DNA from: Tubulanus polymorphus
Lineage: Eukaryota > Animalia > Nemertea
Reading direction: 5' to 3'
DNA: 64,000 bases
Assembly (NCBI RefSeq): GCF_964204645.1
Contig: NC_134026.1
Span: forward strand, 18,138,150 to 18,202,149
Below the pieces are notes generated by a model. The model did no database searches, was not told the DNA's origin, and saw only the letters and a list, made by a program, of their open reading frames with translations. Positions 29,572 to 53,086 of this stretch are shown piece by piece. Positions within the stretch are counted from its first letter, which is position 1; each line of letters starts with the position of its first letter. A program made the translations under genes and the position numbers.

Positions 29572-31224
29572 TCAGTGTCGGTGCTGGTGCTGATGTTGGT
29601 GCTGGTGCTGTAACTCTTCAATAGAAACTTGTCCCTCGGTCATAAATTTCCATACAATATTAGACATTCTGGCCATGTTACGATCAGAACACCGTACATC
29701 GTATGTTCTTTTCTGCATCGCGTCAGAGTGTTTCATCAAATTAGCCAAATCACGTTCGTTACTGGCACCGAGATCTGATCCTAGCATTGTTGACACCACA
29801 GATTTTCTGAGCACCGTACAACTCGTTCGACTTGCTTTGTTCGAGGACGCAGAAAGTTCACTGGAAATAATGTTGGAGACTTGACTCTGGTTCAAAGTCC
29901 GACCACTCCACGACAAGAAGACATTGAATGTTGGGTGACTGTGTCTCGTTTCTTCAAAACTTGGAATCAGAGGACGAATGTGATCGATGAATGCCTTCAG
30001 AAGTTTGAAATGATAACAATTTAACGATAGTTGGGCAGCACCGTAGAGCGACATTGTTTTATGCTGTACAACATTGACCACATGTCTGTCAAGGTAAACG
30101 TTATCCAGAGCTGCATCTACTTCACCAACTTTCAGGTTTATTATAGGTCCAGAACGTGTCGCGTTGTTGAGACTCAATAACATAATCAGATAGTTCCGGG
30201 CTCGGATGAAACAATGTCGATTTTTATGTCGATGACGTTCATCGGTATCCTTCTTGTATCTTTTTTTGTCGTTAGGACAATCGCGTAAAATCTTGTTACC
30301 AATGACTGCCCGTTTGCCTTTCAAATATAGCTTGATATGATTCGTTGTTAAAAGTGCTTGTCGATGTTTGACCTTCATTACAGCCGCCCGTTCCATGATT
30401 TTCTTCTGCAACGAGCAATTCCAAATTTGGATTTGTTTAACGATCCGTTCAACTGTTTTTGATGTAATCCAGTCTTTATCGAGAAGTTTTCCGTACTCCA
30501 CAAACTTTTTGAAATCAAGTAAGTAGTTTTTAACCGTACTGGCTGTTTTTGTTTTGAGAGATGGAGAAATGAATTTGTTTTCGATCTCTTGTAATTTTAC
30601 AGTGACGAGGTTAGCACTGAAATCATGACCGTAGATATCAATAATTTTTTGAACATGTTTTACGGCCTGCAAGGCCTGACGTTCGTTTTTCTCACCGCCC
30701 CCAAACGTCTGTAGCCATCGTCCAAAAGTTGTAATCTCGTTGGCAAATTGATGATTATTAACGCTATCAGATTGTACGCTCGCACTTGCGCATGCATCAG
30801 ATGAACCACTATCTACGCTGCTTTTAACGTTGGTTATCTGTGATTTGCAGTGCTGCTGAGTAGATTGCTTACTACACAACGACGATGATCCAAAGGCAGA
30901 TTTTTCGCATTTAGCCAAGTTCATGTAGTGACGGTAAATTGGATCTGATCGCTTGAATTTATGTTTGTTGCCGAGATGCTTATCAATACGTTTAACAGCG
31001 CTGAAACAATCTTCAACCGGACACTGGTGTAGAGTTTGATTACTATTGATTTTTCGTTGGTTTTGTGCTTTTTGTTGCTGCGTAAACTTGAGTGATGCGC
31101 GGCGATCGAACTTATGAAATTCTCTCAAATGACGTGGTAGATTTGTGGTATTCTTTTCACACAATGAACATGGATATCGATAGACCACCCGATGCTTATT
31201 TTCTGTGTGTTCGGAGGTTTCCAT
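29572..31224 (-). CDS. Tyrosine recombinase with two N-terminal C2H2-type zinc fingers (YR1, intronless)
   Basis: CSLC..LPRHLREFH and CPVEDC..IDKHLGNKH; catalytic-type NATRSG, HKT, CTVLRKS, LMKHS, RTYD. Confidence 0.9.
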   Translation of the reverse strand: METSEHTENKHRVVYRYPCSLCEKNTTNLPRHLREFHKFDRRASLKFTQQQKAQNQRKINSNQTLHQCPVEDCFSAVKRIDKHLGNKHKFKRSDPIYRHYMNLAKCEKSAFGSSSLCSKQSTQQHCKSQITNVKSSVDSGSSDACASASVQSDSVNNHQFANEITTFGRWLQTFGGGEKNERQALQAVKHVQKIIDIYGHDFSANLVTVKLQEIENKFISPSLKTKTASTVKNYLLDFKKFVEYGKLLDKDWITSKTVERIVKQIQIWNCSLQKKIMERAAVMKVKHRQALLTTNHIKLYLKGKRAVIGNKILRDCPNDKKRYKKDTDERHRHKNRHCFIRARNYLIMLLSLNNATRSGPIINLKVGEVDAALDNVYLDRHVVNVVQHKTMSLYGAAQLSLNCYHFKLLKAFIDHIRPLIPSFEETRHSHPTFNVFLSWSGRTLNQSQVSNIISSELSASSNKASRTSCTVLRKSVVSTMLGSDLGASNERDLANLMKHSDAMQKRTYDVRCSDRNMARMSNIVWKFMTEGQVSIEELQHQHQHQHQHRH

Positions 31225-31528
31225 TATTATACTAGCTTTTTGCCTGGATAATATTTATTCTCAGTCGCTCAGTCGTTCGTATCGTAATCGCATAATATGG
31301 CTTCCCTTTACAGCAGCCAAATATTATAAAAATACAGAAGTTCGTTCGTTTGTTCGTTTGTCTATCAGTGGGGTATGGCTGCAGCCAGCAGTGCCGCCGC
31401 ACAAATCACAGCTGTTAGCAAAGACATGTTGCTTTGTATCGTGTATACAGTAAAAGGGGTAATAACTCCTGTATATATGGTAGAAGTATAATTTCGACCT
31501 GTCTAATGAGATTTTATATCTCCTGGTT

Positions 31529-32018
31529 CTATTGTCGGCTGTGTCTGTACTGCCTAAGTCCAAAAAACACTAAAGTCGTTGTGACGATCAGAGTAAATAT
31601 TCCACCAAACACGGAACCTAAAATAATAGCTACTCGCCTCTTGTCAGTCTTCAATGATTGTAGTTGTCTTTCTTGGTCGGCGTGGTGTTTAATGGTATTT
31701 TTTAACACCCTCTGCAGCTCGACTAGATTTCTATGCACACTAATAATTTCCAACGAATTGTACAAGTGTAAATTTATCTTGTACAACTTTCCGTCTATCC
31801 GGTGTCGATTGTTTTGTAAAAAGGGGTAATGTAACACTGGCATAGATATCGGTGCCTAACAACATTTTATAGTCTCCTGTAGCTACATCGACACGCGATA
31901 CACCGCCAATGGTACCCCATGTGTTTGACGATTTCTGTCCGAATATCTTCAACAGTTCTTGTTCATTGTCCCTGTTTTTCCGCATTTTTGGAATAGGTAG
32001 ATGGGTATAAAAACGATC
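31529..32018 (-). pseudogene. Terminal exon of a membrane protein, frameshifted
   Basis: Minus-strand acceptor TTCTTTGCAG near 32019; one frameshift; TM segment VAIILGSVFGGIFTLIVTTTLVFFGL. Confidence 0.5.
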
Positions 32019-32142
32019 CTGCAAAGAAGATTGTCAAAAACAGATACATTTTCACATAGATTCTTGTGTGTGTGTGTGTGTGTATGTGTCCGAATTTTGT
32101 ACCAATCGATTTATGAACTTAATGTTTTTTTCTATTTTGCAG

Positions 32143-32241
32143 GCTGGTCGTGGAGATTCGGCGACAAAGTTCATGTGGGACGAAGCTTCTTTCGTGTCAA
32201 ACACAGATGAACACACGGCTGTCATATTGGGATTCCTGCAA
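32143..32241 (+). CDS. Terminase ATPase subunit exon (Walker B region), herpesvirus-like; rest of gene not visible
   Basis: Acceptor TTTTTTCTATTTTGCAG then AGRGDSATKFMWDEASFVSNTDEHTAVILGFLQ, resembling the UL15-type RG..DEAxF..ILGFL pattern. Confidence 0.65.
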
Positions 32242-32293
32242 GTGAAGTTATGGCGACTTTTTATATATTAGACAAATGAATCAGTTCATCGTA

Positions 32294-32571
32294 GACCAAC
32301 AGGCTACGATGGTTTGGTCATGTAGAACGAAGTACTGGCTGGACGTCGAGGGTGCGACAAGTAGAGGTGATTCCAGCAAAGAAGAAACCTGACAGACCCA
32401 AGAAAACATGGGAGCAGGGGGTTAGGTAAGACAGGATGTCACTCGGATTGACACCAAACGACCCACACGACCGCTCTAAATGGAGAGGACGACTTCGCTC
32501 AGTCAGACAGGCCCCACCCTCTGGAGAGGATTAATCCAGGCCTGTATAAAATAAACCAGGATGATGATGAT
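32294..32571 (+). mobile_element. 3' fragment of an RTE-clade LINE
   Basis: Encodes RLRWFGHVER...RPKKTW...DRSKWR and ends in a (GAT)n tail. Confidence 0.8.
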
Positions 32572-33120
32572 CGCTCATTATGATATCCGGTCCAGTCCAT
32601 CGCAGCCATCATTGCACACGATCACATAACTCTGTAACCTTTTGTCATATCGTCTTGATTATTATTCCAATCGATTTCTGAGGAAATTTTCCTACTAGAC
32701 ACCATTTTCATTTACATCTATACAATATAATCGCCCAAAAAAGTTAGACAACAAGCTACTCCAGGCACGGCAACCAAAACCAACAAACTGGTTGCCGTGC
32801 CTGGAGTAAAATCGTAACAAAAATGGCCGCCATCTAAAGGAAAATGCATTGGACTCTTCTTCTTCTCTTCTTTCTTCTTTACCTATCGTGTGGCAACCTC
32901 GTAGACGAGGAATATCCCACATGGGGTGTAAGATGCATGAACAAGAAAAAGCTGCATGAGCTAGAAAAATATTGAATAAATAATATATTTACATTTATAA
33001 ATTAAAAATGCGTTGTTTTGTCTGACATTGGCACCATCGTACACATCGTACGCATGGAACCGCCATCGTACACTTTGTACGCATGGTTTGTGGGACTGTT
33101 GTTTCTTAGGGTTCATATCG

Positions 33121-33256
33121 ATTAAGGGCAGATTTGAAGCCCTCTATCGAATCTTGTTGGATGACCCAGTCAGGAAGGGTGTTCCAAATGCGGACTGCTT
33201 GGGGAAGGAATGAATATTTGAGGGTGTCTGTCCTGCAGTATGGAACCATGTACCTG
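33121..33256 (-). mobile_element. 3' fragment of a CR1/L2-like LINE
   Basis: Minus strand encodes PYCRTDTLKYSFLPQAVRIWNTLP..SIEGFKSAL. Confidence 0.75.
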
Positions 33257-33908
33257 GACTTTGTGACATTGCCTATGTATCTAGATATATTAATATATAT
33301 ATGTTTTTCATGGGCGAGTGATTTGATGCGTTATTCGCGTGTAAGGGATTACGATTTCAGACCTGATTGATTTGATCCGTAAATGATTTGAGGTATGGGT
33401 GAGACGTGAATGCTTCAATGCTTGAAAAGCATATAGACCATGAATTGTAGACACAAGCGATTATTTGAGACATAAAATATTTCATCCGCGATGTGCGTGT
33501 AGAATATGAATTGGAGAAGCAACTATGATTTTAGGCGTGAGTGATTGTAGGTGTGATTGACATGTAGACTATGGATTGAAGAAGCGACTATGATTTGGGA
33601 CGTGAGCGATTTCAGACGTGAATGACATGTTATAACTTCTTGGCTCCGGCAAGCGGATTTATCAAAAATTCTGTGTTTGTGGGGATTTCCCAAATCATGT
33701 TGGTGGTAACACGAGTACAAATTTCAGCATAAAATAGATTGTCCTGGTTTCTGAAATTTCAGTATTTACTAGATATTGATATTCACTAGTGTTACTATAC
33801 ACGTTTACATCAAATCTACAAGAAATGAACGACAATAAGTATATCAACAGCACACACAGAAAACATGCCTAAAAGGTCGTAGACTATGGATTGAAGATGC
33901 GACTATGA

Positions 33909-36794
33909 TTATTCGTCTAAATCTTGTTCGGTCAAATCTTGACCTGACATAATTTTAAAAACGAGTCCACTCATCTTAGCCATCGTGTTGTCGGCAACGC
34001 GAATGTCGTACGTACGTTTTTGCATGGTTTGCGAATGTTTCATCAGTGTCGCCAGGTCTTGCTCAGTGCGTGCTCCCAAGTTCATTTGCAACAAAATTGA
34101 AACAATTGATTTTCGCATCACTGTACAACTTGCACGAACATTACGTCCACCGACCTTAATAAATTCTCTCGTTATAACGTTGGCAATTTCTGATTGAGAC
34201 ATTTGCCTTCCAGACCATGTGATGAAGACGGCATCCTTATCCTTGAATTGAGCTGGCACATTTGGACGAATATGTTGTAAGTATGCTCGTAGTAATTGAT
34301 ACTCATTCGTTGAGAGCGAAATTTGTGCCTTACCATACTTTTGTTCCGTTTTATGTACGAGCACTGTCATTACACAACGATTTTTATGTACATTATCCTG
34401 GGCATTCAAAACGTCACTGATTTTCAAATTGATTACAGGTCCTGCCCTGGTGGCATTGGCCAGTACTAATAGCATAATCAGGTGATTCCGGGCATTTGTA
34501 TGATCTTGTTGTGAAATTGTCGCAGCCTCATGACACGTACGTAGAATGGTGCCTGCTCTGGTAGCACGATCACTATTCAAATACGATAGTACTTGTTTGA
34601 CAGTAACAATTGCACGTTTGTGAATTTCTTTCTTTTCATGCGCACGCGTAGAAATCATTTTATTCAAGCTTGTATTCCACAATTTTACGTGCTCGTTGAT
34701 GATCTCGTGACAATCTTTCAAAACCCAGTGCTTTTGTTTTATTATACCCCATTTTATAAACTTTTGAAAAGAAAGTAAATAGTTTTTCACCGTACTAGCC
34801 TGTTTTGTTTTCAGCATGTTTGGAATAAAGTTCTGTTCAATCTGATTTAAATTGTCAATTAATGACGATTTTGTGAATGTTTTATTGCCGAAATTTTTAA
34901 ACACAATATTCGCCATTTTCGCGGTTTGAGAAGAGACGGCGTTACTTTTCATACCGCCACCAAATGTCGACAGCCACCGCTGGAATTCTCGATTTTCGGC
35001 CTGAAATTCTGCTGGTATGCCCACATCAACGTTATTATAATCATCATCATCGTCATCATCATCATCATCACTTGACGGAAAATATTCCATGTCATCATCG
35101 CTTTCGTCATCAACCACCACCATTGGACTTCCATTTTCTTCAGCAGCATCATTTTCAGTATCATCATCTTCATCAACATCATCATCATCATCATCATCAT
35201 TATCGCCATTCCTGTCCGACGCTGTAACGTTTTTTGTTGACGTTTGTTTGTGAGTCATCGCCATATATCGATGATAGTTTTCATCACCGGGAACAAAGCC
35301 ATGTTTTTTCGTGCGCAGATGTTTGTCCAGACGATCAAATGTTGCTAAACATCCTTCAACAGGACACGTTGCTTTGGTATCTGCTGCATCTGAAAAACAA
35401 AACATGAATGATTTGAGACGTGAGTGATTGGAGGTGTGATTGATGGTTTCAGTTTTAGTTTATTCGGTATCCATAATCTCACAAACAGCAAGTTTTTCAA
35501 TGGAGAAAACATAACAATTAACAAATATATGATAAAGCAACAATATAGGGAGTGAAAAATGAAAGTTCAATACAATTTGTAGTTTCAGCATAATTTTGAT
35601 TTGACAGAATTTTTTATTTCATGGCGTAATTGTCTCTTAAAACTTTTATGTATGAGCCATTTGAGGCATGTATGATTTGAGACGTAAGTGATTAGAAGCG
35701 TGATTGGCATGTAGATTGTAATTAAGGCGTGAGTGATTTAAGACGTGAATGATTTGAGGCGTGATTGTTGTGTAGAATGTGAGTTGTAAACAGATACAAC
35801 TATGATTTGAGGATGAATGATTTGAGGCGTCAGTGATTAGAGGGGTGATTGGTGTGCAGACTAAATTGCAGACATAAACGAATAAGATTTGAGGCATGAA
35901 TGATTTGAGGAGTGAGTGATTTGAGGTGTGAATGATTGGAGGCATTAATGATTTGAGGCGTGCATGATTGGTGGCGTGAATGATTTGAAAGTTCAATGAT
36001 TGGTGTGTAGACTGAATTGCAGATATAAACGAATATGATTTGAGGCATGAATGATTGGAGGCGTGAATGATTGGAGGTGTTAATGATTTGAGGCATGAAT
36101 AATTTGAGGAGTGAGTGATTTGAGGCGTGAATGATTGGAGGAGTTAATGATTTGAGGCGTGAATGATTGGAGGCGTTAATGATTTTTTAGGTGTGCATGA
36201 TTGGAGGCGTGAATGATTTGAGGCGTGAATGATTTGAAAGTTCAATGATTGGTGTGTAGACTGAATTGCAGATATAAACGAATATGATTTGAGGCATGAA
36301 TGATTGGAGGGGTGAATGATTGGAGGCGTTAATGATTTTTTAGGTGTGCATGATTGGAGACGTGAATGATTTGAAAGTTCAATGATTGGTGTGTAGACTG
36401 AATTGCAGATATAAACGAATATGATTTGAGGCATGAATGATTGGAGGGGTGATTGGTGTGTAGACTGAAAGGCAGACATAAACGAATAAGATTTGAGGCA
36501 TGAATGATTTGAGGCGTGAGTGATTGGATGAGTGATTTGCATGTGATTATAGTGATTGGCAATAATAGTGAAAACGATTGACATTCGTCTGTCAATTAGA
36601 AAAAAATAGGAAGAGAACGTCAATGACATTGAACAATGATGAAATATAAGATATTTACCTTTAGAGTATTTAGTAGCAGCTTCAGACGAGAAACGGTGAT
36701 ATTTACGCAGATGATTTTTATACGAGCATTCAAAATCACAATCACAAAAAAGACACTTTCTCTGTGTCAATTTTGACTTCTTCACTGGTGGCAT
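33909..36794 (-). CDS. Spliced zinc-finger tyrosine recombinase (YR2): exons 36794-36659 and 35389-33909
   Basis: Phase-1 GT..AG intron (AAAG|GTAAAT, TTTTTCAG|AT) joins in frame; finger 1 in exon 1, finger 2 and NATRAG/HKT/CTVMRKS/LMKHS/RTYD in exon 2. Confidence 0.85.
35405..36560. repeat. TGATTTGAGRCGTGA motif array inside the YR2 intron
   Basis: Dozens of degenerate copies of (A)TGATT(T/G)GAGGC(G/A)TGA, with longer duplicated blocks. Confidence 0.9.
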
Positions 36795-37179
36795 GATACA
36801 ATGTCGCAAAAATACTCCTGTGAAAATACAACCACAAAATGATGTTTGAATGACGCTAAAATGAGGAGGGTTGGATATTTTATTGTGTGGTTGAGTTGAC
36901 TTGACACTTGAGTCGACTTGTCACGATCTGTGAGCTAATTGAAAGAGAAATCGATACCATGCCTCTTGTCGCTATACTGTGCGGTTCAGCTATCGTTGAA
37001 CAAACTTTTACATGACACTAATACTAAAAATTAGTCCTGTGCAAATGGACCGTTCAATGTTTTTATTTTCAATCCTTCCATGGCAAATATCGTAGAACAA
37101 AGATTCAAGTCGATTTATATATCTTCATCCTCTCGTGAAAATATCGCAACATATACCTAGGACGACTCTGGGGAAGGGG

Positions 37180-38710
37180 TGAGGCGTGAGTGATTGGAGG
37201 CGTGATTGGCATGTATACTGCGAGTTGCAGACAGAGATGACTATCATTTGAGGCATGAATGATTTGAGACTTGAATGATTTGAGACGAGATCTGAATTTT
37301 GACTGTGAACTGTAAGAAGCCAATGTGATTTGAGACGTGAATGATTTCAGGCTTGAATGATTTGAGACGAGATCTGAATTTCGACTATGAACTGTAAAAA
37401 GCAACTGTGATTTGAGACGCGAATGATTCGAGGCGTGATTTGACTTTGATCAGAGTGTGATTTGAGACACGAATCATATGAGACGCAAATTATTTGAGAC
37501 GCTGATGATTTGAGACGTGATTCGACATTGATGGGAAAAAGCATTATGAGTTGAAACGTCAATGATTTGAGGCGTGATTTGATTTGAGGCGTGATTCGAA
37601 TTTGACCAAAGAGACAATGAGACGAGATCTGAATTTCGACTATGAACTGTAAAAAGCAACTGTGATTTGAGACGCGAATGATTCGAGGCGTGATTTGACT
37701 TTGATCGGAGTGTGATTTGAGACACGAATGATATGAGATGCAAATTATTTGAGACGCTGGTGATTTGAGACGTGATTCGACATTGATCGGAAAAAGCATT
37801 ATGAGTTGAGATGCGAATGATTCGAATTTGACCAAAGAGACAATGAGACGAGATCTGAATTTCGACTATGAACTGTAAAAAGCAACTGTGATTTGAGACG
37901 CGAATGATTCGAGGCGTGATTTGACTTTGATCGGAGTGTGATTTGAGACACGAATGATATGAGATGCAAATTATTTGAGACGCTGGTGATTTGAGACGTG
38001 ATTCGACATTGATCGGAAAAAGCATTATGAGTTGAGATGCGAATGATTCGAATTTGACCAAAGAGACAATGAGACGAGATCTGAATTTGAGACGCTGATG
38101 ATTTGAGACGTGATTCGACATTGATCGGAAAAAGCATTATGAGTTGAGACGCGAATGATTCGAGGCGTGATTTGACTTTAATCGGAGTGTGATTTGAGAC
38201 ACGAATCATATGAGACGCAAATTATTTGAGACGCTGATGATTTGAGACGTGATTCGACATTGATCGGAAAAAGCTTATGAGTTGAGACGTGAATGATTTG
38301 AGGCGTGATTTGATTTGAGGCGTGATTTGATTTGAGGCGTGATTCGAATTTGACCAAAGAGACAATGAAACGAGATCTGAATTTCGACTATGAACTGTAA
38401 AAAGCAACTGTGATTTGAGACGCGAATGATTCGAGGCGTGATTTGACTTTGATCGGAGTGTGATTTGAGACACGAATCATATGAGACGCAAATTATTTGA
38501 GACGCTGATGATTTGAGACGTGATTCGACATTGATCGGAGTTGAGACGTGAATGATTTGAGACGCGAATCGAGTAGGCGACTGTGAATTGAGACGTGAAT
38601 GATTTGAGATATGATTTGTTTTTTAACGTTCAACAACTAGCCGACGGTGAGTTTAGACACGAGTGATTTGACGTTGATGGGAAAGAGCATTATGACTTGA
38701 GACGTGAAAG
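37180..38710. repeat. Higher-order modular tandem array of the same motif, upstream of YR2
   Basis: TGATTTGAGACG cores alternate with a small set of reused linker modules. Confidence 0.9.
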
Positions 38711-39303
38711 AATGGGGCTCTTGCAGAACTAATATCACTAGGGGCGTTACTGTGCTATGGGTCATGGCTACATTAAAAATAGTATAGAAAATGTCACTGT
38801 TTGCCTTATAACTTTCTTATTAGTTGAAATCACTGCCAACATGCTGTGAAAAAGTTGTTCAAAATTTGATTCTGAACATTTTGATATAAATTTAAGTACG
38901 TTTGGTGCTACAGTAAAAGCTGTGCTCATTTGAAATATCGTTAAAATTTTGAATGATTTTTTACGCTAAGTCCCAAAAAATGTTAATTTCTCAAGAGAGT
39001 GCAGGTTATACAGATAATACAAGAGTACTAAAAATAATATAACTACATGCGTTAGATAATAACAAATAAATTTCCCACAGCATGTTGGCTGATTTGGTCA
39101 ACCGTTTTTGAAATATTAGCAAATAACCGGTTAGTTTTGGGCTGTTTCAGTGTAAAATTGGACCCATGCACAACAATGCCATCTGTTGGGTGTGCTGGTG
39201 TACAACAACCTCATTAAGTCAGAAAATCGATTTTAATCACGCGATGGAAGTTTATTATCTTCGGCATATTCATCGATGCGACTTTACAAAATTGTGACAA
39301 AAG

Positions 39304-40659
39304 TCACTTTGTTCTATACATCCCTCGAACAATATCATAACATCTTTTTTCTATGATATTCTTATCGTGTCCGTACAAAGTTATGAATTGTTGAAGTACC
39401 GAATTGTTCATTTTTGTACGCACGTCCTGAATTCTAATATTTTTCTTCTTTATTTCATTCTTGAACAAAGCGGCAAGTTCTTCTTTCAAATTGTCAGGTA
39501 CTTTATGCTTTTTGTGTGACTTTGATGTCGTTTTTCTGTGTGACTGTCCTGCTCCTGCATTTTTGTAATCGTTTGAATCATTCTTAACCTCACCATCATC
39601 GACATAATCTTCGTCATCATTATCATTGTCTGTTCCATAATCATCGTCCATTATTTTAGCTTTCTTTTTGTGTGCAATTTTTTGTGGTGTTTTTTCATGT
39701 GATCGTCTAGCTATCGCGTGTTCGTTGATGTAATCATCATCACTCTCCATCATTGTATCGTCCATAACACCATCTACTTCTACATCATTCTCTTCATTAT
39801 CCACTAATTCATCGTTATCAATTTCGTTACCTACATCGTCCTCGTCATTTGCGCCACGTTCTTCTTCACGATGTTCTTCGTTCACTTCTTTTTTGATTTT
39901 ATATTCTGCTTTTTTCCCTTCACACATTAGTTCTTTGTACTTGGCGTCTGTTTGCTTCAGATTGTGGCAACTGCTTTGTAGGTGGGGACCCAATTGTTTC
40001 ACAAGCTTGGGGCAGTCCGCCACCGGACACTTTGTAAATACCGTTGATCTGTTGACCAACGGAATCTTTTCCATTTCGTCCTTGTGTTTTCCCATATTCT
40101 GAAACAAAAGACAAAATCACTTTAGTCTATACGGTGTGAGTTTAAATCTCAATTATTTTAGACGTGATGCGAGATGAAATAATGAAATCCATGTGATTTT
40201 AACCGCGAATGATATTAGACGTGATCAGGATTTGATTTACATCGATTACGATTATCAAGTTTGATTCAAAACGTGAATGATTTCAGACGTGATTTGAAGT
40301 TGGACTTTAACCACTCCACGTCGGGAACCGCATATAAGCGTACTCTTTACATTTTACTGGTCTAACGCCAGACGATTTTACTTGTAATGGGGGGAGGTCT
40401 CGCAAAAATTATCTCCCCGTTAAATATATAGTATGAGTGTGAACCGATAATTATTTTAGACATGATTTGAGGTGAAGTAATGAAATCCATGTAAAGTTTG
40501 ATTCAAAAACGTGAATGATTTCAGACGTGATTTTCTACCTACCTTGAAGTCTTTTCCGAATAATGTTATAGTTCTTTCCGTAATGCGATGAAAGCTTTTC
40601 AGGTGGCGTGGAAAACTCGAAGCTATGTCTTTCTCACAAAGAACACAATATTGCTTCAT
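39304..40659 (-). CDS. Spliced double zinc-finger protein lacking the recombinase domain: exons 40659-40543 and 40098-39304
   Basis: Phase-0 intron (AAG|GTAGGT, TTTGTTTCAG|AAT) joins in frame; CVLC..FPRHLKSFH and CPVADC..LGPHLQSSCH match the YR1/YR2 fingers; acidic linker follows. Confidence 0.8.
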
Positions 40660-40859
40660 ATTGGAAATTTGCCAAAGATAATTTATATATCGATGTGTTG
40701 CGTTTTGGTACTGAAAATGGAGTGGATAGAATCAACGTGATTGAACATTAGAACACAAAGCGGTATAAGAACGTGAATACTGCCAAACCTACTTCTAAAA
40801 CCCTGAGCAATTTTGGGATCGCTATTCATACCGAACAGATCAACAGGGATTAACTATAA

Positions 40860-42548
40860 GTTTTTTCAAAAATTTTATTTTTGAGAAAAACTGAAATATT
40901 ATTTCACCATCGTGTCTATCGGTCAAAAATAAGCACGCATGCACAGTTTGAGGCAAATCGCAGTAGGGGAACATGGTATTCTAGCAAATAACCAAATGAC
41001 AAATTCACAACTTTCCTGAAATTGAACATAAAAAATCGTCTCAAAGTCAACATTTGTAGAAAACTGAAATGTCTACTCACCAATAGTTTTCTAATGGTAA
41101 TCCGAACTGTGGGAACTGGTGTAGAATAATCCAAATGATAGCACAGAATTCGGGTAGATCCGTACGGTCTGAAAGACAGAATGGAAATGAATTGAGAACG
41201 TGGTGGACACAAGATGGCCAACTTTGCGCATGCGCAGTATGGTAAAACGAAAGCTTTGATGAAAAACTGTAATTTTTCTGGTGGAATGGGCTAGATACGT
41301 TATAGAGATGATGTGTGCAAAGTTTCAATTCGATCCCAGTGTGGGAACCATGTTTTCTATGGTGGGGGGATCTGGGGCGCAAGTGAGCCAAAAAAACACC
41401 CAAAATGAAAAATTATAAAATATTTAGAAAAAACTGAAATTTCTCTCTTGGCATAGCCAGAGAACCTGAAAACAAGCAGTTATACAAAGTTCCATCGATA
41501 TCCAAGTGTGTGTGATTTTTGTATAAGTTGGGTTATTAGACACAGGAGGTCACCCTTGCCCATGCGCAGTAGTGGAAAAGACAAACTCCCGATGAAAAAC
41601 TGCAATCTTTTGATTGGAATCGTCTATGTTCTATGGTTAGATGTCATTTGTTGAGTTTTTGAGAAAATCAAACTGTGGGAAGGCAGAGATATGTATTGGG
41701 GTTTAAGGGGTCAGGGCCCCTTTCACGTAAAATCTAAACCTCGGAGAAAAACTGCATCTTCTCTTTGGAATCGATGATAGAACATCATAAAAGACTCAAA
41801 TACGAAGTTTAAAGCAAATCCGAGTGTAGGAAGATGCTCTTTGAAATTTTGTTCAGCTAGGGTCAAGGGTTGTCAAAGGCATCCCTCGAAAAATCAAAAC
41901 CTCATAGAAAAACTGAATTTTCTCGGCGAATGCGTTCATAGCATGTTAAAACAAGTTAAAATACAAAGTTATAGCGAAATCCAACTGTGGGAAGCCTGCA
42001 AACCATAGTACATGCAACTCTGACAATATTACAAGAAAAATCGCATAAAATGGTCTACAAAGTCAAGATTTTAGGAAAAACTGAAATTTTAACTCACCAA
42101 AATGTGTATCGACACTAGATAGATGCTATATCCAAGAATCACAATAATCCTGGTGTGGAAAGAGGTAAAAATAATTCGATTTGTCGGCCGGAGAAAATCT
42201 CGATACGTCCTTTCAGTAGAAAGTCAGCGCAGTGAATGAAGCTAGAACATGGCGGACAAAACATGGTGGTTCTCGCGCATGCGCAGTATGCTACATCGAG
42301 AACTTGTATGAAAAACTGTAATTTTACTTTGGAATATTGACTGGTTGTCCGTATGTGAAGTTTAAAACGAATCTCTATGTGGGAAGGGGGTGTAGCAGGG
42401 AAGGGTTCACTTAACGCATGCGCAATAAGCTAACATTAGAACTTGGATGAAAAACTACAATTTTATTTTGGAATAATATTAATCAATCGACAGACAGAAG
42501 CATGTTTGTAAAGTTTAAAAGAAATTCCAGTGTGGGAAAGGGGGTACC
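40860..42548. repeat. Degenerate tandem array of about 10 units of roughly 170 bp
   Basis: Recurring GAAAAACTG(A/T)AAT..AAAGTTT..AATCC..GTGGGAA and GCGCATGCGCAGTA; no credible ORF. Confidence 0.7.
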
Positions 42549-42889
42549 TGGTTAGTAATCTGTCTATTCCTGGTCTTGTTGTTCAGACCGGCTGGATAAT
42601 TCTTCCTTCTTCATCCACGATTCTGTAGGTTGATGGTTCACCAAAAAGATTGGTTTGGATAGCACTGAATTTTGCAAAGTTTAATCGTTGGTTGGTGGTC
42701 CCTCACACTAAAAGACGTTTGTAAATCCGCCCGCATTGTGCAACCAATTCCGTTGAATCCTGACTTCTTCGAGCTTTCCTTACTAGGTGGTTGTCACCTG
42801 ACGGTTTCTGACCAAGGCCGTTTCAGAGATAGAGATTTTCAGCTAGGATGAGATAATCTTCATCCCGGATGGCTTTAATAGTTTGAGTT

Positions 42890-42976
42890 ACTTGTTGTCC
42901 AGGCATTTTGAAATGATACACATAGTTTTTATAAAAACATGGTGAGGAAACTATTTGTACCCAGAAAATCTAACCA
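42890..42976. repeat. Inverted repeat partner of 49908-50006 (promoter-like sequence plus ATGCCTGGACAACAAGT)
   Basis: Reverse-complement match with a few mismatches and one indel. Confidence 0.85.
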
Positions 42977-43121
42977 CGTACCAAAGATATTTAGAAAAAC
43001 TGACGTTTTACTGCACAGGCTGCATTTGGGTAACAAAATGAATGTCTATGGAAAGTCTCTACCGATTCGACATGTGGGATCAGAGAAAATTACAAGTCCA
43101 AAAAATCCCGCGCCGTCAACC

Positions 43122-43315
43122 ACTGTTTCTTGTTTTAGGAAGCGTGGATGCGACACTAGAGCTAGGCCACAACGGCCCTGAGTATGACAAGACATAATGT
43201 CCCAGCCCGGCAGGGCCAAATCGTGTAAGTCTTGTCGAATTACCAATGTTATAGTGGCTTAGCAGCGGCAGAGTTGTGTTTCCAAAGTTGAAAAATGAAT
43301 AGTTCCAAAAATGAC
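43122..43315. repeat. About 195-bp direct repeat, copy 1 (copy 2 at 50049-50242); 5' part also inverted at 43496-43552
   Basis: actgtttcttgttttaggaagcgtggatgcgac...aatagttccaaaaatgac at both sites. Confidence 0.9.
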
Positions 43316-43619
43316 CAATAGTCGATAAAGTGGCGCTGAGGCATAAAAATATGGGGGTCTCTCTGGCTACTATACCTTAAGGTACACAGTGCGGTGCACG
43401 GTGCGAAGATTTTTCCTACTCTTTTACCATAAACCTTAAAAGATTTTAAAGAAAATAGTCCATGTTTTTTTCTTGTACCGTGTACCGTGTACCGATGTGG
43501 CCTAGCGCTAGCGTCGCCTACTCGCTTCCCAAAAAAACAAGAATCAGTGGTTAGGTAGCGAGCAAAAAACTTCAACACAAATATTTAGAATTATATTTAC
43601 ATTTATTTTTTTAAAACAT

Positions 43620-44990
43620 GCATGTGCACATATCAAACATTTGGTCGAGGAACCACCTTGTTCTCCTCATACCATTTCATGAAAGGTGCAATATTTTTTA
43701 AAAACTCGTCCGCTGGAACGAAATGTCCAGCATCACTTTGTTTTTCAAACAAGTCCAAATCTCGTCCATTTATTGCAAAATGTTATTTTGTACCCAAGAA
43801 AAAACGTGATTCCTCACTAACCTTTCAGACCAATGTTCCAAGTCGTTGTAGAACAAGCGTAACCAAAATAAGCGTAGAGTGATTGTTTTGTGGTAAACGA
43901 CACAAATGCCAAGTCCAAATACATGCCGGTGTTGTAGTCGACCGTAGACTTTCCTTGTCGGATAGATTGAAGTTCTCTGTTCGATCAGAAATTGAGCACG
44001 TTGTACAACGCATTCGTATTCAACTGCGGAGCCGTAATCCACAGACGATGTTCCGATTCGTGATAATAGAGTAAATGACAGGGTAATTCACCGTTGTCGT
44101 GATTTGCCGATGAAGAAGATACAACCCTAGAGCTTTCACCTTCGCCGTCTTCTACTCTCCTTTTAAAAAAGCCGAGTGGTGGTTGCCTAGGAACGATATT
44201 GGTCTCAATTGGTCCCTCGTGAAATATAACACCGCATCCGGAAAGATATCCTCGCACGAAATTGTGTAGAGGAGGAGTTTGCAGATTTACTTTTAGTTTG
44301 TGATTTCTCATGAATTCTATGGTATACATTGGTTTTTGGTGGTCCAATAAGTTGAATTTAGTCTTGATGTTGAACGTTTCCACTGCCAGACCAACGTACT
44401 GTAATATTTTATGTTGGGGTAACTTTTTCGGCACACACGTGATTTCGAGATATTTGCGTAATTGTCGAATATCAATTTGAAAGCCGGGAGGAGAGTCACA
44501 GTCAGCAGGGGTAGTAGCGCCGGCAACGTCGGTGGTTGGTGGAGAAGTTGGTGCCTGTTGATGTGCGTTGGGATTACTTGGTGGTTCTCTTCTATGTTTG
44601 TGGTATCGGTATTCGAGTTATCCACCAGTGTATCTGCGTCTGCGTTCTCTGTATTTGAGTTATCCGCGTGTGTATCTACGTCTACGTTCTCGATTTGTGT
44701 CTGAGACATTGTTGTCGAGTCTTGAAGATCCGAGGTTTTAAGTTCTGGCACTGGTATATTTTCTTCCTGCTCTATTTGACAAGTAAGAATAGCATCAACA
44801 CACTGGGTTAGATAGTTATCCAAAGTTGCGGAATCCTTCTGCGTAGAACTAACGTACTTTGGGGGTAACAAAGACTGTGTTGCTGACTGGTTTAGTTGAG
44901 TTGGTTGAGTTGGTAGTGGTTGGTGTTGCTATTTGGGTAAAGATGGTAAAAACACCTCGTCGTCGTACTCGAGAATCTTCGTCACGAACA
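43620..44990 (-). pseudogene. Frameshifted hypothetical gene
   Basis: Successive overlapping minus ORFs 44317-44871, 43985-44434 and 43770-44042. Confidence 0.45.
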
Positions 44991-45620
44991 AAGTCAGTTA
45001 TCCTGTAACCAGCAAATTTTTTCCACGTCTAACCTTTATTTTTTATTTTCGAACTTGTGTCCAAGACTCGTGTCGAGAGAGTACTATGGAACTTTGCTCA
45101 GTGATCACATTTAAATACAAAATTCGAGTGAGAATCTTATTAAAACCTAACCAAGTTTTTTCACCACAGATATTTTCTCACTACTCAACTTTACATTTTT
45201 GGACACATTTTTTCAGCAGCTCGAAATAGAAATCCCTATCTATTTTCTTGACAATTTGCTCCCTTGCCGAACAGACCTTGGTGATCTACAACCATCTGAC
45301 CTCTGGGAAGACAGGAAGACGAAGCCTACTTGGAAGACGGGAAGACGAAGCCTGTTGAACTTGCAGAAGTTAGCTCTTGGTGAGATCGCTGAGAGGAGAG
45401 TGTCGAGTCGGATACCTCGAGATGGTAACTTTTTTGATAGGGAAAAAACTCGCCTAATTTTTATATAACATATGATATCATTCACCAGAAAATCACGCCG
45501 CGATCATATGACTCTGATAGAGTTTTGTACCCAACTTTTCTCACCGGAAACTCAATTCAGTCTAACGTGTTTTCAGACGTGTTTTCAGACTTGATTAAAG
45601 TTAGTACTTGAAATAGTTTT

Positions 45621-47525
45621 TCACTCCCACGACTTGATAATTTCCAAGTTTTTCCTCACCGTCGTGATAGCAGAAATTATCTTGTTTCCTTTGCCGCGAA
45701 CATGTCCGGCCATCACCGCAGCTGGGTTGTCGGTGCAGTGTTTGAATGGAAGTCCGGTGTTCACACCGCTGTAAGTGCGAACATTTGGCGGCGGACCTCT
45801 ATAACTATCACCGCTAATGCTCATTCTGCTCATGCTCGAGACTAGATCTTTGCTGGCATCTTTATGCTTGACGACGGGTACGCTGTCTAAAACTCTTTCC
45901 ATGAACTCTGTATGATTGCTAGCACCGTAGTGTGATTTGAAATTGGCCAACAAGTCACTTGCGGACATAGCCAAGTCTTGGATGTCAAACCCGATGCACA
46001 AACCGTACACAATTCCCAATCGGTTGAGACATCTAAACGAACTTGTGTCTTCTGTTGGTTTGTCGGCTCCCATTATGGAAAAGAAGAGGGATTTCATATG
46101 TGGCTGTTGGGCGTTATAGACAGCGGCCTGCTCGTGCATTTGTGTCATGAAGTCACAGTTGGGAGTAAGCTTGACGGGGATTTCATGTTCATTGTAAATG
46201 CCCGTAAATACGATCTCGTTTGCCGGCGAGTCTGCGTTGAACACCATGATCACGGCTTTGTGATGTCTAACAAAAGAACTACCTTCAGTAAAAACGCTGC
46301 CCAATTTTTTTGTTTTCTCGCCACGCTTCGATCATGAACTGCATGAAGGCATTTTTCGGATCAATCACAGAGAGCAATTCTGCTTGCTTCTGCGCGGTGA
46401 GTCTTGGTTTTGCAAAAGTTTTCATTTCAACCAGTGCTAAGGTATCTGGACAATCGTTGCTTGTGCTAGACATTAGTGGACTTAGCGCGCCTGTATCCTT
46501 AGTGCATCTAACCAGTTGTGTATCGGCAATATTGCAAACTTTTTCTCGATATTCTCTTTCTCTGCTGATCGTGGTCACGACACCATCCTGTGTGCTAGCC
46601 ATCATAAACAGACCTTTGTTCGACATTCTACCGCCCAGGTACAGATAAAGGGGTTCGTTGCAGAAATCGCGCATCAACAACTCGACCATGTTGGGTAGTA
46701 GCAGATCAAAAGCAATCTTGTGAAGATACGTTCCCATTGTCATCGCTTGATTGGTCGTCATGTGTTTTAGTGATATTTTATGCAAGATTGCCTTGCTGCA
46801 TTCAGCTTGACATTCAGACATCTTGTCGTCTATGATTTTCTTGACTTGATCAAAAGTCAGCTTGTTGGCTTGGGGTAAGGCAACTTTGAGCCAGGGGATA
46901 TTTTTAACCTGTGCTTCCAATTAACTGCTGCCCTTTTTCTTGATTGACCTCGATGCAACGTAGAGAAAAATCTTTGTCCAGTTTGCAAAACCTTGTTATA
47001 ATGTAATACGCCTCTAGATTCCTGTTTTGAGCGCATAGTTTACGAATCTGATCTTTGTTTACGCCACTGTTGTAAAAACCAGAACCACCGTTTACGAATG
47101 CAAGATTACACGCACGCAGCGAGTAAAAATACAATTCGTATAAGCTCTCATAACCACCAGTGGAGTCTAAAGCATTGACAACTGCCGTTGTAGCAACAGA
47201 AGCCTGGGTAACTTTGGGTTTTGCTCCGCCGTGCGAAGGGGTAATTTTAGATGCCGGTGAAGCGACTACATCTACGGGAACATTCCTTTTTTGGGCAGCG
47301 GGGGTAGTAGTCATCAATTTTGGGGTATTTGGTGTTACCTTGGGTGGCACATAACCTCTAGGCAGACCGGCAACAGCTGGGGTAACGGTAGCAGTAGCTG
47401 GAGTCCGACCACCTCTTTTATTGCTGCCTGATTTATTTTTCCTCTCTTCTATCTTCTTGACCATTTCCTCGTAGGACACAACCCCCTGAGGCATGCCACT
47501 CTTCCATGATTCCTTGTCAGCCATG
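45621..47525 (-). pseudogene. Probable single gene of about 630 aa split by two frameshifts
   Basis: Three minus ORFs overlap by 17-20 nt; the second and third begin at TTG; one shift is in an A7 run near 46305-46311. Confidence 0.6.
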
Positions 47526-47877
47526 ATATGAACACCCACAACAAAAACAAGTAAAGTCAATACTTTATTGTAATAATTTCTCTAGGGTACAAAATACAAA
47601 TTTTTACCTCACCATGATATCACTATAAACACATGGACACAATTTTTTCTAACATAAAAAATCCTAACACTTCATTTATACCCAAAAAAGCGTACCTGAT
47701 ATACAAGTTCAGAATTGTTAGGATTTTTCCTCACTAGAGTCCGAAAATTTAAAGTTAGGTATAAAAGTGGTTTTAGAGCTAAAAGTCACTCGCCAGTACC
47801 TAACCAAATCATTCAACTGTTACCCCTTGACCTGTCAAAGTCAAGCTAAATCAGAATAAACTGAAAAAAAACACAAA

Positions 47878-49689
47878 ATGGATCTTATCTCTCAACTGCC
47901 CGAAGAGGCCAAGAACAGCAGATTTGATGCCGCTGCTACTATCATCCTCTACGAAAACATTGCTCCCAATGTGGATAGTCACTTGAACTTTTTGTTTTTA
48001 ACACACTGCAACCTAAACTTGCAAATGACTTCTAATCTTACGGATATTATTTCTGCTATGGTTCGTAAAGGAACGTATACATACAGCAAAGTGGTTGAAA
48101 TATGTCAGGATATGGCAAATAACGTGGCACAACTGCTAGTGAAACAAGCAAAAGCCAAATGTGGCAACTACAAAGAAGACATAATGTCAAATTCTTCGTT
48201 CATTGAGTTTACCGAATCGATAACCGCACCAGACTATCTACACCCGATGTCAACCATTTATCTGGACTATGAAAACGAATCTGCCGACGTGGATACGAAA
48301 TGGACAGAAAACTATTACAATAAACTGTCTGCGATTGCTGAACGCATATCACGCATATCGACAAAGAAGGAAGTTCAACTTGCATTTGCGCTTTGCTGTG
48401 GATTCTATGATGATTTTGTGAAAAATACCAGTAGTCAGGCACAAACATTTAAACACGTGATTCGAAAAATGGTAACTTGCGACAAAGCGCGTGAACGACA
48501 TCGCTTGAATACCCAACTGATCCATTCTCGCTACTGCAACGTGAACTTTATGAAAAAGGTAATCTTGGCTATCCAAAATCACATTAATGATAGAAAAATG
48601 AAAACTTTGGTTACGCAAATGTTGAACTTTACCGAAGTTGAAATTAACGAGAATCGCATTAATCGCATTAGACGTCAAGCGCAATCACTTGCCGAGAGGA
48701 GACACCGCGAAGAATGCGAAAGGAGAGATCGTGAAAGGATAGAGCGCGAGGAACTTGAGATAAGAGATCAGGAGGAACGTGAAAGGAACAGATACCATGT
48801 GTCAGAGAGCGATTCTGAATCGGAGAGCGATTCTGAATCGGAGAGAGATTCTGAGGCGGACATATACATCAACTTGACGCAATCCGGCATCGAAGAAGAA
48901 GGAGAGGATAACTCGTTGGTTAGTTCTGACCACTCGATTGATCCATTCAGTGATGAGTTACCCGACCTGATACCACCGAGACGCCGCCGACGTGTTACTC
49001 CACGGAGAACAGCTACACTAACTACCAAAGCTGCTGGTACCACAAACCCATCATCTTCAGTGTCGACATCTAGAGACAATAATAGTAGTAATAATATACC
49101 CATGACTTCTAGTGGTTCCACGAGCGCACGTACTCTGGTAAACGTAACTGCTACTTTGCCAGGCGCAGACACGTTGTTGAACGCTATGAACAGTTATGGA
49201 TTTACATCTCCTGCTACATCTTCCTCTGGATTTACGTTCGTACCCTCAACAACATCATCAGACGTCTCAACGTCTCAACGCACTGTTACTCCTAGACGAC
49301 CCATCTCTGCTGCTAGTGGTGTAGCTACTCGCTCAAGAACAAACACTATTACCCAACCAACTACTGGTAGCAGCAGCAGCAGCAATGCGACTAACTCTGA
49401 AGAAGCGCGAAAGAGAAAGCATTATCACGAAGAATTTGGTAAGCAAAAGATGCACAAGGCCAATATGAATACTAAGATTTCTCCCAAAGACATTAGCTCT
49501 GATTTGGGAAAGTTATCCAAAGAACAATTGGAATCTAGACTTTTGTGTGTGTGTTGCACAATGGCCGCTAGAAACATTGTCAACTCGTGCGGTCACGTAA
49601 CTTCGTGTGACCAGTGTATTCTCAAGTTGGACAAATGTCCTGTTTGTAAGCAAGAAATTGTATCTAGAGTCAAGTTTTATGATTTGTAA
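47878..49689 (+). CDS. RING-HC finger protein, putative E3 ligase, 603 aa
   Basis: C-terminal CVCC..NSCGHVTSCDQC..CPVC of IAP-type RING spacing; TATAAAA near 47760. Confidence 0.85.
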   Translation: MDLISQLPEEAKNSRFDAAATIILYENIAPNVDSHLNFLFLTHCNLNLQMTSNLTDIISAMVRKGTYTYSKVVEICQDMANNVAQLLVKQAKAKCGNYKEDIMSNSSFIEFTESITAPDYLHPMSTIYLDYENESADVDTKWTENYYNKLSAIAERISRISTKKEVQLAFALCCGFYDDFVKNTSSQAQTFKHVIRKMVTCDKARERHRLNTQLIHSRYCNVNFMKKVILAIQNHINDRKMKTLVTQMLNFTEVEINENRINRIRRQAQSLAERRHREECERRDRERIEREELEIRDQEERERNRYHVSESDSESESDSESERDSEADIYINLTQSGIEEEGEDNSLVSSDHSIDPFSDELPDLIPPRRRRRVTPRRTATLTTKAAGTTNPSSSVSTSRDNNSSNNIPMTSSGSTSARTLVNVTATLPGADTLLNAMNSYGFTSPATSSSGFTFVPSTTSSDVSTSQRTVTPRRPISAASGVATRSRTNTITQPTTGSSSSSNATNSEEARKRKHYHEEFGKQKMHKANMNTKISPKDISSDLGKLSKEQLESRLLCVCCTMAARNIVNSCGHVTSCDQCILKLDKCPVCKQEIVSRVKFYDL

Positions 49690-50048
49690 AATGTAACAAA
49701 TGTATGATTTCAAAATTGATCCATGTGAAAGCTATGTAATATGAGATTGTATTCAATTATTAAATTATATATGCATTCTACAACAAAACATGGCTTGTAT
49801 TTTTGTTCTTTTGTGTTTCATTGTATACAATGAGTTTTTCGGGTACGCAGACAAAATTTATGGTTAGACAGACAGAAGTTAGTTGTATTGTGCTGCATTG
49901 TACAACTTGGTTAGATTTTCTGGGTACAAAAAGTTTCCTCACCATGTTTTTATAAAAGGTATGTATATCATTTCAAATCACGACACAAAATGCCTGGACA
50001 ACAAGTGATGGATTCTGGTCAGTGTGTACCAACATGATCCACCAGTAA

Positions 50049-50242
50049 ACTGTTTCTTGTTTTAGGAAGCGTGGATGCGACGCTAGCGCTAGGCCACAAC
50101 GGCCCTGAGATTGTCAAGACATAGTGGTCCAGCCCGGCAGGGCCAAATCGTGTAAAGTCTTGTCAAATCACCAATGTTACAGTGGCTTAGCAGCAGCAGA
50201 ATTGTGTTTCCAAGTTGAAAAATGAATAGTTCCAAAAATGAC
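50049..50242. repeat. About 195-bp direct repeat, copy 2
   Basis: Matches 43122-43315. Confidence 0.9.
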
Positions 50243-50634
50243 TCGAACTTTGAATCACGTACCAGATCATTCACGTCCTGAATCATCATCTCAAATCATC
50301 ATCCCAAATCATAGACTCGTGTGAATCAAGTCCATGATTCGAATTCAGATCACGTCTGAAATCACAGATATTTCACCAGTTCATGATTCGAATTCAGATC
50401 ACTTCTGAAATGACAGTCACGTCTCCAATCACAGTATGTTTGTCAGAATAAATTCGGTTCAAAATGTGGGCCCAGCGATCGGCGCCAAATACCCTGGCTC
50501 ATTTCTTTATCTATTAGATAGCAATATGATTCTGTTCGAGAAGTCGTCGCCTCTACATCTAACCCGAACACTATGCCAATGATGTCAGACAGTCAAGCCA
50601 AGTGGCATCCAAACCAAAAAAAGTTTCAAATACT

Positions 50635-50890
50635 CACAAAAAGTGCTGTCCGGTTAGGTACTGCTTCAACGTATTCGAACGATTAGACAAACACTTACAG
50701 GCCAAACCTCAAATTCGCTATTTCCGGGAGATCCCAAATATCATTACTATATGAAAATAGGAAAATATGCCGGGAAAGTCAGTTCTCCTTCGACCAAAAG
50801 TAAACAGGGGCTAAGATGAGCGACATGGTCTTCAAAATCATCTCCGGACAAGAAATGACCGAAAGAGATATTGAGGATGACGTCGAGTGA
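50635..50890 (+). pseudogene. Internally deleted zinc-finger YR remnant (YR3), inverted relative to YR1/YR2
   Basis: CCPVRYCFNVFERLDKHL..FPGDPKYHYYM followed closely by AKMSDMVFKIISGQEMTERDIEDDVE*, matching the YR2 finger and C-terminus; flanked by AATCACGTC motif clusters (50250-50435, 50995-51146). Confidence 0.8.
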
Positions 50891-51338
50891 GGTCAATTGT
50901 CATAACAAAACCGCCCGTTAATTACAAATAATAACTTGTGAATAGACTCATCGGAACACCATGTTCGAATACTTTCGAATGAATGAAAGAATGATCAAAT
51001 AAATGATCACGGTAATTATCACTAGTCACATTGCTAATCACATATGAATCACGTCGATAATCACATGAATCACGTCGATAATCACATATGAATCACGTCG
51101 ATAATCACTCAATCACGTCTCATATCACAATCACGTCGGAAATCACTTTTGGGACAAAAAATGACATGTTTTTTAAAAAAAACAAAAGACTCAGAAAAAA
51201 TCAATTCTCGCGCAAAAAAATGCGTTTACCCATTAGAAAAAACCCGAAACTCTATTTTAAGATAAAATTTGCGCAGAAAACCGTTGGCTAGAGCGCTCAA
51301 CACGTCACGTAGAAAAATACCAAAAATACCAAATGACC

Positions 51339-53075: not shown

Positions 53076-53086
53076 GTAAGACTCAC

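Follow-up and report, generated by a model that had tools for sequence, protein, structure and literature searches.

A stretch of 64,000 nucleotides from the nemertean Tubulanus polymorphus (assembly GCF_964204645.1, contig NC_134026.1, positions 18,138,150-18,202,149 of the forward strand), hereafter the window, contains part of a large virus-like element that ends at a telomere-like repeat, and four zinc-finger genes that are clustered near what is likely the right end of this element. The four genes are paralogues: two, YR1 and YR2, encode intact tyrosine recombinases, a third encodes fingers and a C-terminal domain without the recombinase core, and the fourth, YR3, is a wreck. We put at about even the chance that the intact recombinases are the integrase of the element and inserted it into the telomere-like repeat at position 51339. 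A preliminary description of this DNA had concentrated on a short motif repeated around three of the genes and had proposed a module in which the fingers recognise the repeats, but it overlooked the context that best explains the recombinase, namely a virus-like element whose end adjoins a telomere-like repeat.

Finger types in common were detected in all four genes by tblastn, as the preliminary description had claimed, but a single finger code is absent from the three array-flanked genes, because finger 1 of YR2 and finger 2 of the third gene have each diverged. The fingers of YR1 correspond to the family consensus (NLPR/RIDK), and those of a related recombinase gene on sequence L002 (ALPR/RIDR) are likewise of the consensus type. 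The claim of double fingers holds directly for YR1, the only gene with both fingers within one open reading frame (ORF), whereas in YR2 and the third gene the fingers lie on two predicted exons, and YR3 retains a single frameshifted finger. The introns of YR2 and of the third gene were predicted from the sequence alone, as phase-compatible GT..AG introns. The third gene had been called zinc-finger-only, but it also carries the C-terminal helical domain of the family (E 6e-8 to the L002 recombinase, E 2e-5 to P0004), which is typical of the longer family members and is lacking in YR1 and YR2. In YR3, the first finger and the catalytic core were searched for and neither was found.

The recombinase part of the proposed module has been borne out, as YR1 and YR2 are both intact tyrosine recombinases with fingers placed before a complete fold. 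In YR1 the catalytic residues are R357, K389, T470-x-x-R473, H499 and Y508. Across 30 diverse sequences, R357, K389, R473 and H499 are invariant and Y508 is nearly invariant, and the first His is replaced by Thr; YR2 contains the same catalytic motifs, that is R, K, R, H and Y, again with Thr in the first His position. Over residues 153-530, the structural model of YR1 (predicted local distance difference test score, pLDDT, of 74.9) matches integrases of the Xer, Cre and lambda types. Foldseek retrieved XerA and Cre at E ~1e-4, VIA-align superimposed residues 153-504 on XerH (Z 14.1, root-mean-square deviation 4.7 over 280 residues), and the lambda integrase structure PDB 1z1b was among the fold matches. 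Because the model matches a complete integrase fold, the finger pair is an additional domain ahead of a complete recombinase. The 50 matches listed from a fold search of BFVD comprise distant integrases only and include neither a herpes nor a nimavirus recombinase, an absence that excludes nothing. No match to DUF3504 or GCR1_C was found in YR1, YR2 or four relatives, and no relative of the recombinase was found in IMG/VR.

The recombinases belong to a large family, for which a profile search returned 2,422 clusters at E <= 0.001. Of the relatives retrieved, 88 have a near-complete core preceded by 120 residues or more; one or more fingers are present in 84 of these 88, and two or more in 55. 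A finger pair is thus the usual front end in this family, and the idea that it is a local invention was rejected. The family is probably the CryptonV of Repbase, and its finger-pair architecture is presumably that of CryptonV. Organism names were found on two of the ten relatives looked up, both of them octocorals; look-alikes in the Atlas are mostly eukaryotic, with chordates, arthropods and cnidarians commonest, and a further protein search, based on a broad alignment, yielded just 11 proteins that were already known from the earlier searches. A FastTree tree, built from 57 rows out of 125 that were eligible, places YR1 and YR2 in separate clades (support 100 each), each together with proteins from other data sets, and both lie with the L002 protein inside one 24-row clade (support 97). 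On the evidence of this tree, YR1 and YR2 are old paralogues. The L002 recombinase, the one relative for which long DNA was available, is ~43-46% identical to the recombinases of the window and shares both fingers, which are separated by a predicted intron. Its gene lies among dense intronless ORFs, beside a 1,284-amino acid ORF that matches Herpes_MCP weakly (E 0.018, 13 bits, below the cut-off of 25) and has no sequence match in the PDB. Two further family members, P0071 and P0089, carry 8-10 fingers in tandem pairs, with a recombinase core that is small or missing, so that core-less finger proteins recur in the family.

The left 51 kb of the window have ~40% GC and dense intronless ORFs, and the region from 56 to 62 kb has ~31% GC and many host repeats. 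The gene content of the element includes polymerase B, BIR, RING and galaxin-repeat genes. Comparison of the polymerase with the PDB gave Pol delta as the best matches, with herpes polymerases at E ~1e-4; four homologues were found, none of them under a virus name, and IMG/VR yielded no polymerase relative. Nimavirus or naldaviral core genes were not identified among the scanned ORFs of the window, which holds part of the element, and no Pfam match to a piggyBac transposase was found in the 88 ORFs scanned. We consider the element to be a large, low-copy and likely herpes-related endogenous DNA virus of more than 50 kb.

At its right end, the element adjoins a 1.7-kb array of TTAGGG/TTTAGGG variants. 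On the far side of this array, the open frame of a KDZ-transposon ORF is ended by a GTGAGT splice donor directly before the array, and no continuation of the KDZ-transposon gene was found to the left of the array. Because the ORF runs into the donor and then into the array, the telomere-like array looks like an intron minisatellite. That it is instead a viral terminal repeat is less likely, as it starts at the splice donor of a host transposon ORF. The simplest reading of this one junction is that the element was inserted into a telomere-like intron repeat. In such an insertion, a circular form of the element would recombine with the TTAGGG-like target through a short core located at the end of the element. 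Insertion of this type has been proposed for the telomere recombinases of nimaviruses (PMC10871703) and for CryptonV, which targets microsatellites (PMC8869645).

The repeats around the last three genes are formed by the 16-bp motif TGATTTGAGRCGTGA, which occurs 55 times in the window at no more than one mismatch (0.03 expected; 0 of 100 shuffles as high). The number of matches rises to 104 when up to three mismatches are allowed; 102 of them fall into six clusters at 33.3-33.6 kb (n = 9), 35.4-36.6 kb (n = 34), 37.2-38.7 kb (n = 43), 40.1-40.5 kb (n = 6), 50.25-50.43 kb (n = 5) and 51.0-51.15 kb (n = 5), and two are strays at ~45.5 kb. At the same threshold, bases 1-33299, which include YR1, and bases 51339-64000 contain no match. 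The preliminary description was thus accurate in placing the motif around the last three genes only. The commonest motif-to-motif spacing is 16 bp (41 intervals). The arrays are non-coding, since the motif is located in the flanks and predicted introns of the three genes and outside every predicted exon. All matches from 33 to 40.5 kb are on the plus strand, with the genes on the minus strand, and all matches from 50 to 51 kb are on the minus strand, with the YR3 remnant on the plus strand. The arrays are private to this element and directional, on one strand relative to the neighbouring gene. The strands at YR3 are as had been described, but this flip reflects one inverted copy of the gene with its flanks, a single duplication event, and was therefore rejected as independent evidence of a coupling between fingers and arrays.

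The linkage of arrays and genes recurs for YR2 under two other organism labels, whereas YR1 and the L002 gene, both with consensus fingers, are without arrays. The 17.9 kb of L002 contain no motif match at up to three mismatches, and no over-represented short motif was found around the recombinase gene. L001, which belongs to the clade of YR2 (1,840 bp, little flank), contains no motif match. In IMG/VR, the tandem motif had no match, and the single motif matched 96 loci, all of which lacked a further match at up to two mismatches. A second dispersed 20-bp motif family, CTTATTTCTCCTCTTGTAAC, has 11 matches at up to four mismatches on both strands of the window, at four sites (4949-5009, 15395-15497, 21561-21624 and 23602-23641) between virus-like genes and distant from the recombinase genes; it is possibly origin- or promoter-like.

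Dyad symmetry was looked for in the 16-bp motif and none was found. Recombinase cores consist of 11-13-bp inverted repeats flanking 6-8 bp (PMC3212892). Lacking a dyad, the motif is not shaped like a recombinase crossover site; the arrays were rejected as crossover cores, and it is highly improbable that they act as a crossover substrate. A tentative and somewhat doubtful proposal is that the arrays are candidate accessory, arm-type binding sites for the fingers. In favour of binding are the extra DNA-binding domain, the directional 16-bp unit, the cluster ~190 bp from the inferred element end and a linkage that is kept across isolates. Against it are the consensus-finger genes YR1 and L002 without arrays, the lack of a common finger code and the presence of another dispersed motif away from the genes. 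A coupling of fingers and arrays is possible, but co-location alone does not show it. The arrays are probably element-internal repeats that spread with duplications of YR2-type genes and expanded by slippage or unequal exchange.

Further data sets provide information on copy number and on occurrence under other labels. X13 comprises raw reads from a separate study under the same species label, and X4 and X5 are contigs under two other organism labels. X13 covers 30 of 30 bins of 31.3-51.25 kb, with 4,478 of 4,977 reads at >=99% identity, and its depth amounts to 27 across the arrays, compared with 44 for unique element genes and 18 for host flank that looks unique. The depth of the element is flat and low, 0.73 times that of the host flank in X1 and 2.5 times in X13, and the likeness thresholds differed between the two depth measurements (85 and 90). 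The X13 coverage and the depth in X13 and X1 therefore argue against a misassembly and against a high-copy array satellite, and indicate that the element is low-copy. X4 and X5 contain pieces that are 97-99% identical, including motif-bearing flanks of YR2, and no long piece of host flank was found in either; this combination indicates spread between hosts.

The coordinates of the genes, arrays and neighbouring features are listed in the table. Several other structures were observed in the window. A galaxin-repeat protein encoded inside the element (25855-26592, plus strand; Pfam E 1.4e-24) is likely a captured animal extracellular-matrix gene. A unit resembling a miniature inverted-repeat transposable element (MITE), with terminal inverted repeats, lies at 43118-43552, and a partial second copy at 50049-50242 adjoins the YR3 arrays. 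An inverted pair (42890-42979 and 49905-50006) surrounds the gene block at 43.9-49.7 kb; the depth over the MITE-like and inverted-pair stretches and over 40.7-43.3 kb is raised in X4 only. Palindromes are present at 24244-24493 (~250 bp) and at 32757-32808 (perfect 20-bp arms, 12-bp loop), and the recombinase gene of L002 contains one of similar size in its second predicted intron (L002 9634-9820); these palindromes are origin-like by shape only. Two paralogous orphan ORFs, at 1475-1984 (minus strand) and 24994-25620 (plus strand), are 37% identical over 167 amino acids, and 20810-21121 (plus strand) may encode a short P-loop NTPase or kinase-like remnant, for which AAA and Zeta-toxin-type P-loop matches were weak and below the cut-off. 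Tandem repeats on the host side have units of ~134 bp (54076-54815) and ~68 bp (63002-64000).

Table. Zinc-finger genes, motif arrays and neighbouring features of the window (aa, amino acids; motif, the 16-bp motif)
Feature	Position	Strand	Remarks
Family B DNA polymerase, intronless, 2219 aa	5821..12480	-	Marker of virus-like element
YR1, intact single-exon gene, 550 aa	29572..31224	-	Finger 1 aa 19-37, finger 2 aa 68-88; core-binding and catalytic tyrosine-recombinase domains; no motif nearby
Motif cluster downstream of YR2	33319..33621	+	9 matches at <=3 mismatches; piece 33301-33550 inverted in one X5 contig
YR2 exon 2 (predicted)	33909..35389	-	Encodes finger 2, an acidic linker and an intact recombinase sharing the catalytic residues of YR1; Pfam Phage_integrase E 1.3e-7
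YR2 intron (predicted, phase 1, GT..AG)	35390..36658	-	Contains array of 16-bp period, 34 matches, 35409-36544
YR2 exon 1 (predicted), 136 bp	36659..36794	-	Start codon and diverged finger 1
Largest array, between YR2 and third gene	37191..38707	+	43 matches; higher-order units of ~82-255 bp; of different length in contigs of X4
Third gene exon 2 (predicted)	39304..40098	-	Diverged finger 2, acidic linker, C-terminal helical domain of the family; no recombinase core
Third gene intron (predicted, phase 0)	40099..40542	-	6 motif matches
Third gene exon 1 (predicted)	40543..40659	-	Start codon and finger 1
Motif cluster upstream of YR3 remnant	50271..50431	-	5 matches; adjoins partial MITE-like copy ending at 50242
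YR3 remnant	50638..50890	+	Finger 2 with frameshift between 50706 and 50721, then last ~28 codons of YR2-type recombinase
Subterminal motif cluster	51049..51145	-	5 matches; ~190 bp before inferred element end
Telomere-like TTAGGG/TTTAGGG variant array, 1.7 kb	51339..53077	+	Inferred insertion target; adjoins element
KDZ-transposon CxC5 ORF	54013-53069	-	E 2.4e-11; open frame ended by GTGAGT splice donor, telomere-like array directly after

Several observations weigh against the assignment of the recombinases as the integrase of a herpes-related element. Target specificity rests on one site, because a single element end lies in the window and the junction lies outside the read coverage. No capsid, terminase or portal genes were identified in the window, and the structural model of the polymerase has a pLDDT of 36.5 only; with no capsid gene in the window and the polymerase unclassed, the term herpes-related is one that we infer. 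Among the 40 of 428 differences listed, 13 fall into YR2 exon 2 and 11 of these change a residue (expected share under neutrality 0.78), so that YR2 has no sign of recent purifying selection in this small sample. The word share and the coverage of X5, given below, fit an independent element equally. A more far-reaching version of the integrase proposal, to which we assign a low probability, would be an invertebrate herpes-like lineage that integrates via a captured zinc-finger tyrosine recombinase, split here into a two-part switch. An enzyme of fingers plus recombinase and a core-less partner of fingers plus C-terminal domain would both bind ~100 directional sites of the arm type, situated at the end of the element and within the introns of their own genes, and would thereby set integration versus excision and regulate themselves, as an animal-virus counterpart of the lambda Int/arm-site system.

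Instead of belonging to the virus, the block at 33.3-40.7 kb with YR2, the core-less gene and the arrays could be an independent Crypton-like transposon nested in it; 50.25-51.34 kb would then be an internally deleted, inverted derivative, the arrays would be the transposon's own binding repeats, and YR1 would be a separate, older viral resident. We regard this as unlikely, yet far from negligible. It would explain why X5 covers just the block and the terminal piece (33.3-40.45 kb and ~51.0-51.25 kb), with zero depth at 31.3-32.6 and 42.0-49.9 kb, although holes in contigs do not prove absence. It also fits the long X5 contig, which departs from the window sequence left of 33301, the X4 contig that starts at 33274, and the X5 word share of 0.20, which agrees with an absence of YR1 (expected 0.19 for the block without YR1 and 0.29 with it). 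Loose ends in the reads point to other motif-bearing loci with different flanks, at least one in X13 (37375/38378, 4 reads) and at least one in X1 (51068/51150), and both the separate, fully supported clades of YR1 and YR2 and the coral members of the family are compatible with a mobile element of its own. However, the depth of the block is not above that of the viral genes in X1 and X13, which speaks against a multi-copy family at >=85% identity, no terminal repeat pair was found bounding the block, and the L002 relative, which also contains introns, is located among virus-like genes. The recombinase genes might also be passengers, or serve in viral DNA processing, with the arrays as viral reiterations (origin- or enhancer-like, or neutral minisatellites) unrelated to the fingers and the telomere-like neighbour as incidental. 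The second 20-bp motif family far from any recombinase gene, the consensus-finger genes without arrays, the neutral-looking differences in YR2 and the shorter arrays of X4, which are simple deletions between repeats (36066 to 36456 and 37405 to 38459), can all be accommodated in this way. Such a passenger role is nevertheless improbable in our estimation, given catalytic residues that are invariant in 30 diverse members, a motif that keeps the same relative strand at three paralogues and at the element end, and a join to a telomere-like array that matches the nimavirus pattern.

Excision, inversion or amplification driven by finger-guided recombination between the arrays, as suggested in the preliminary description, is very unlikely. 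One X5 contig carries 33301-33550 in inverted orientation with the break at the motif copy 33542-33556, the X4 deletions lie inside arrays, and motif clusters lie on both sides of YR3, itself an inverted copy; but ordinary repeat instability is expected to give such variants, and the X5 inversion comes from that one contig. The 4,977 X13 reads have no excision or inversion joint listed in the arrays (2 joints at repeats were dropped), and the motif has no dyad, in contrast to the inverted-repeat cores of recombinases (PMC3212892). The last alternative, that the motif is a common host minisatellite or that the region is misassembled, can be considered negligible. A few other motif-bearing loci do exist under the same species label, as seen in the 4-read loose ends of X13, but the X13 depth is lower over the arrays than over the unique element genes, the 12.6 kb of host-side sequence contain no match, and X13, although from a separate study, covers all bins at mostly 99% identity.

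In the literature searched, which was mostly without subscription papers and Repbase Reports, neither a zinc-finger tyrosine recombinase in a herpes-like virus nor the arrays reported here are described. The element belongs to a known kind, the recombinase-equipped endogenous large DNA virus; what is new is likely the virus group, which is without such an enzyme in that literature. Lambda integrase carries an extra N-terminal DNA-binding domain before its core-binding and catalytic domains and uses arm-type sites. The extra N-terminal domain and the directional, non-palindromic repeats near the element end are shared with this system, but here the sites number ~100, are mostly located within introns at a distance of 11-18 kb from the end, and are candidate sites only. 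Human herpesvirus 6 (HHV-6) integrates through its own telomeric repeats. If the integrase proposal is true, a zinc-finger tyrosine recombinase would be a third integration route for herpes-type viruses, beside the repeats of HHV-6 and the piggyBac of Teratorn, and would parallel the nimavirus case in a different virus group. The window also offers a testable enzyme, a candidate end site and a candidate binding motif for a family with more than 2,000 clusters of animal recombinases, which are uncharacterised. Should the arrays not be bound by the fingers, the window would still contain a well-marked candidate for an integrase, together with a minisatellite of an ordinary kind that is specific to the element.

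Several mobile elements and integrated viruses share single features with the element. CryptonV elements are described as target-specific Crypton DNA transposons of cnidarians that insert in microsatellites (PMC8869645), and PMC5753468 and PMC4455052 list CryptonV by name only. Recombinase-only mobility and insertion into simple repeats would be likenesses, and the family found here has coral members; CryptonV is, however, a small multi-copy transposon, whereas the genes of the window reside in a low-copy, virus-like element of more than 50 kb. CryptonA, I, F and S have a recombinase of the DUF3504 type or one bearing GCR1_C, with animal forms that are without the C-terminal domain, in contrast to the fingers, the C-terminal helical domain and the missing DUF3504/GCR1_C match of the relatives here (PMC3212892). 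Integrated invertebrate herpesviruses have been reported as BelcheriHV-1 in the lancelet (PMC12373286) and as herpes-related regions embedded in ribbon-worm and starfish genomes (bioRxiv 2025.04.19.649669), and they are similarly low-copy, herpes-like chromosomal elements with gene-sparse, repeat-rich blocks (PMC12373286; bioRxiv 2025.04.19.649669). They differ in that a term search of the BelcheriHV annotation table retrieved no named recombinase or integrase (PMC12373286) and that the main text on the ribbon-worm region names no recombinase module (bioRxiv 2025.04.19.649669). The published ribbon-worm region may be the present element or a relative of it.

Teratorn of medaka is a fusion of piggyBac with an alloherpesvirus, and thus likewise a herpes-type genome that became chromosomal via a captured transposon enzyme (PMC10175614). 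That enzyme is a DDE transposase, whereas the present element would use a tyrosine recombinase, and the part of it in the window yielded no piggyBac domain. Endogenous nimaviruses (majani-, pemoni- and some whispoviruses) insert at telomeres and possess telomere-specific tyrosine recombinases with a C2H2 zinc domain (PMC10871703). Like the element of T. polymorphus, they are large endogenous double-stranded DNA viruses with BIR genes, some intron-bearing genes and flanks of telomere repeats, and their recombinases, like YR1 and YR2, combine a C2H2 zinc domain and a SAM-like domain with an incomplete set of canonical residues, a likeness based on motif and model (PMC10871703). In contrast, the nimaviruses are crustacean naldaviruses found in (TAACC)n (PMC10871703), whereas the element described here adjoins a TTAGGG variant and possesses four paralogues and private arrays. 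By analogy, the element would work most like the telomere-inserting nimaviruses and, in concept, also like Teratorn.

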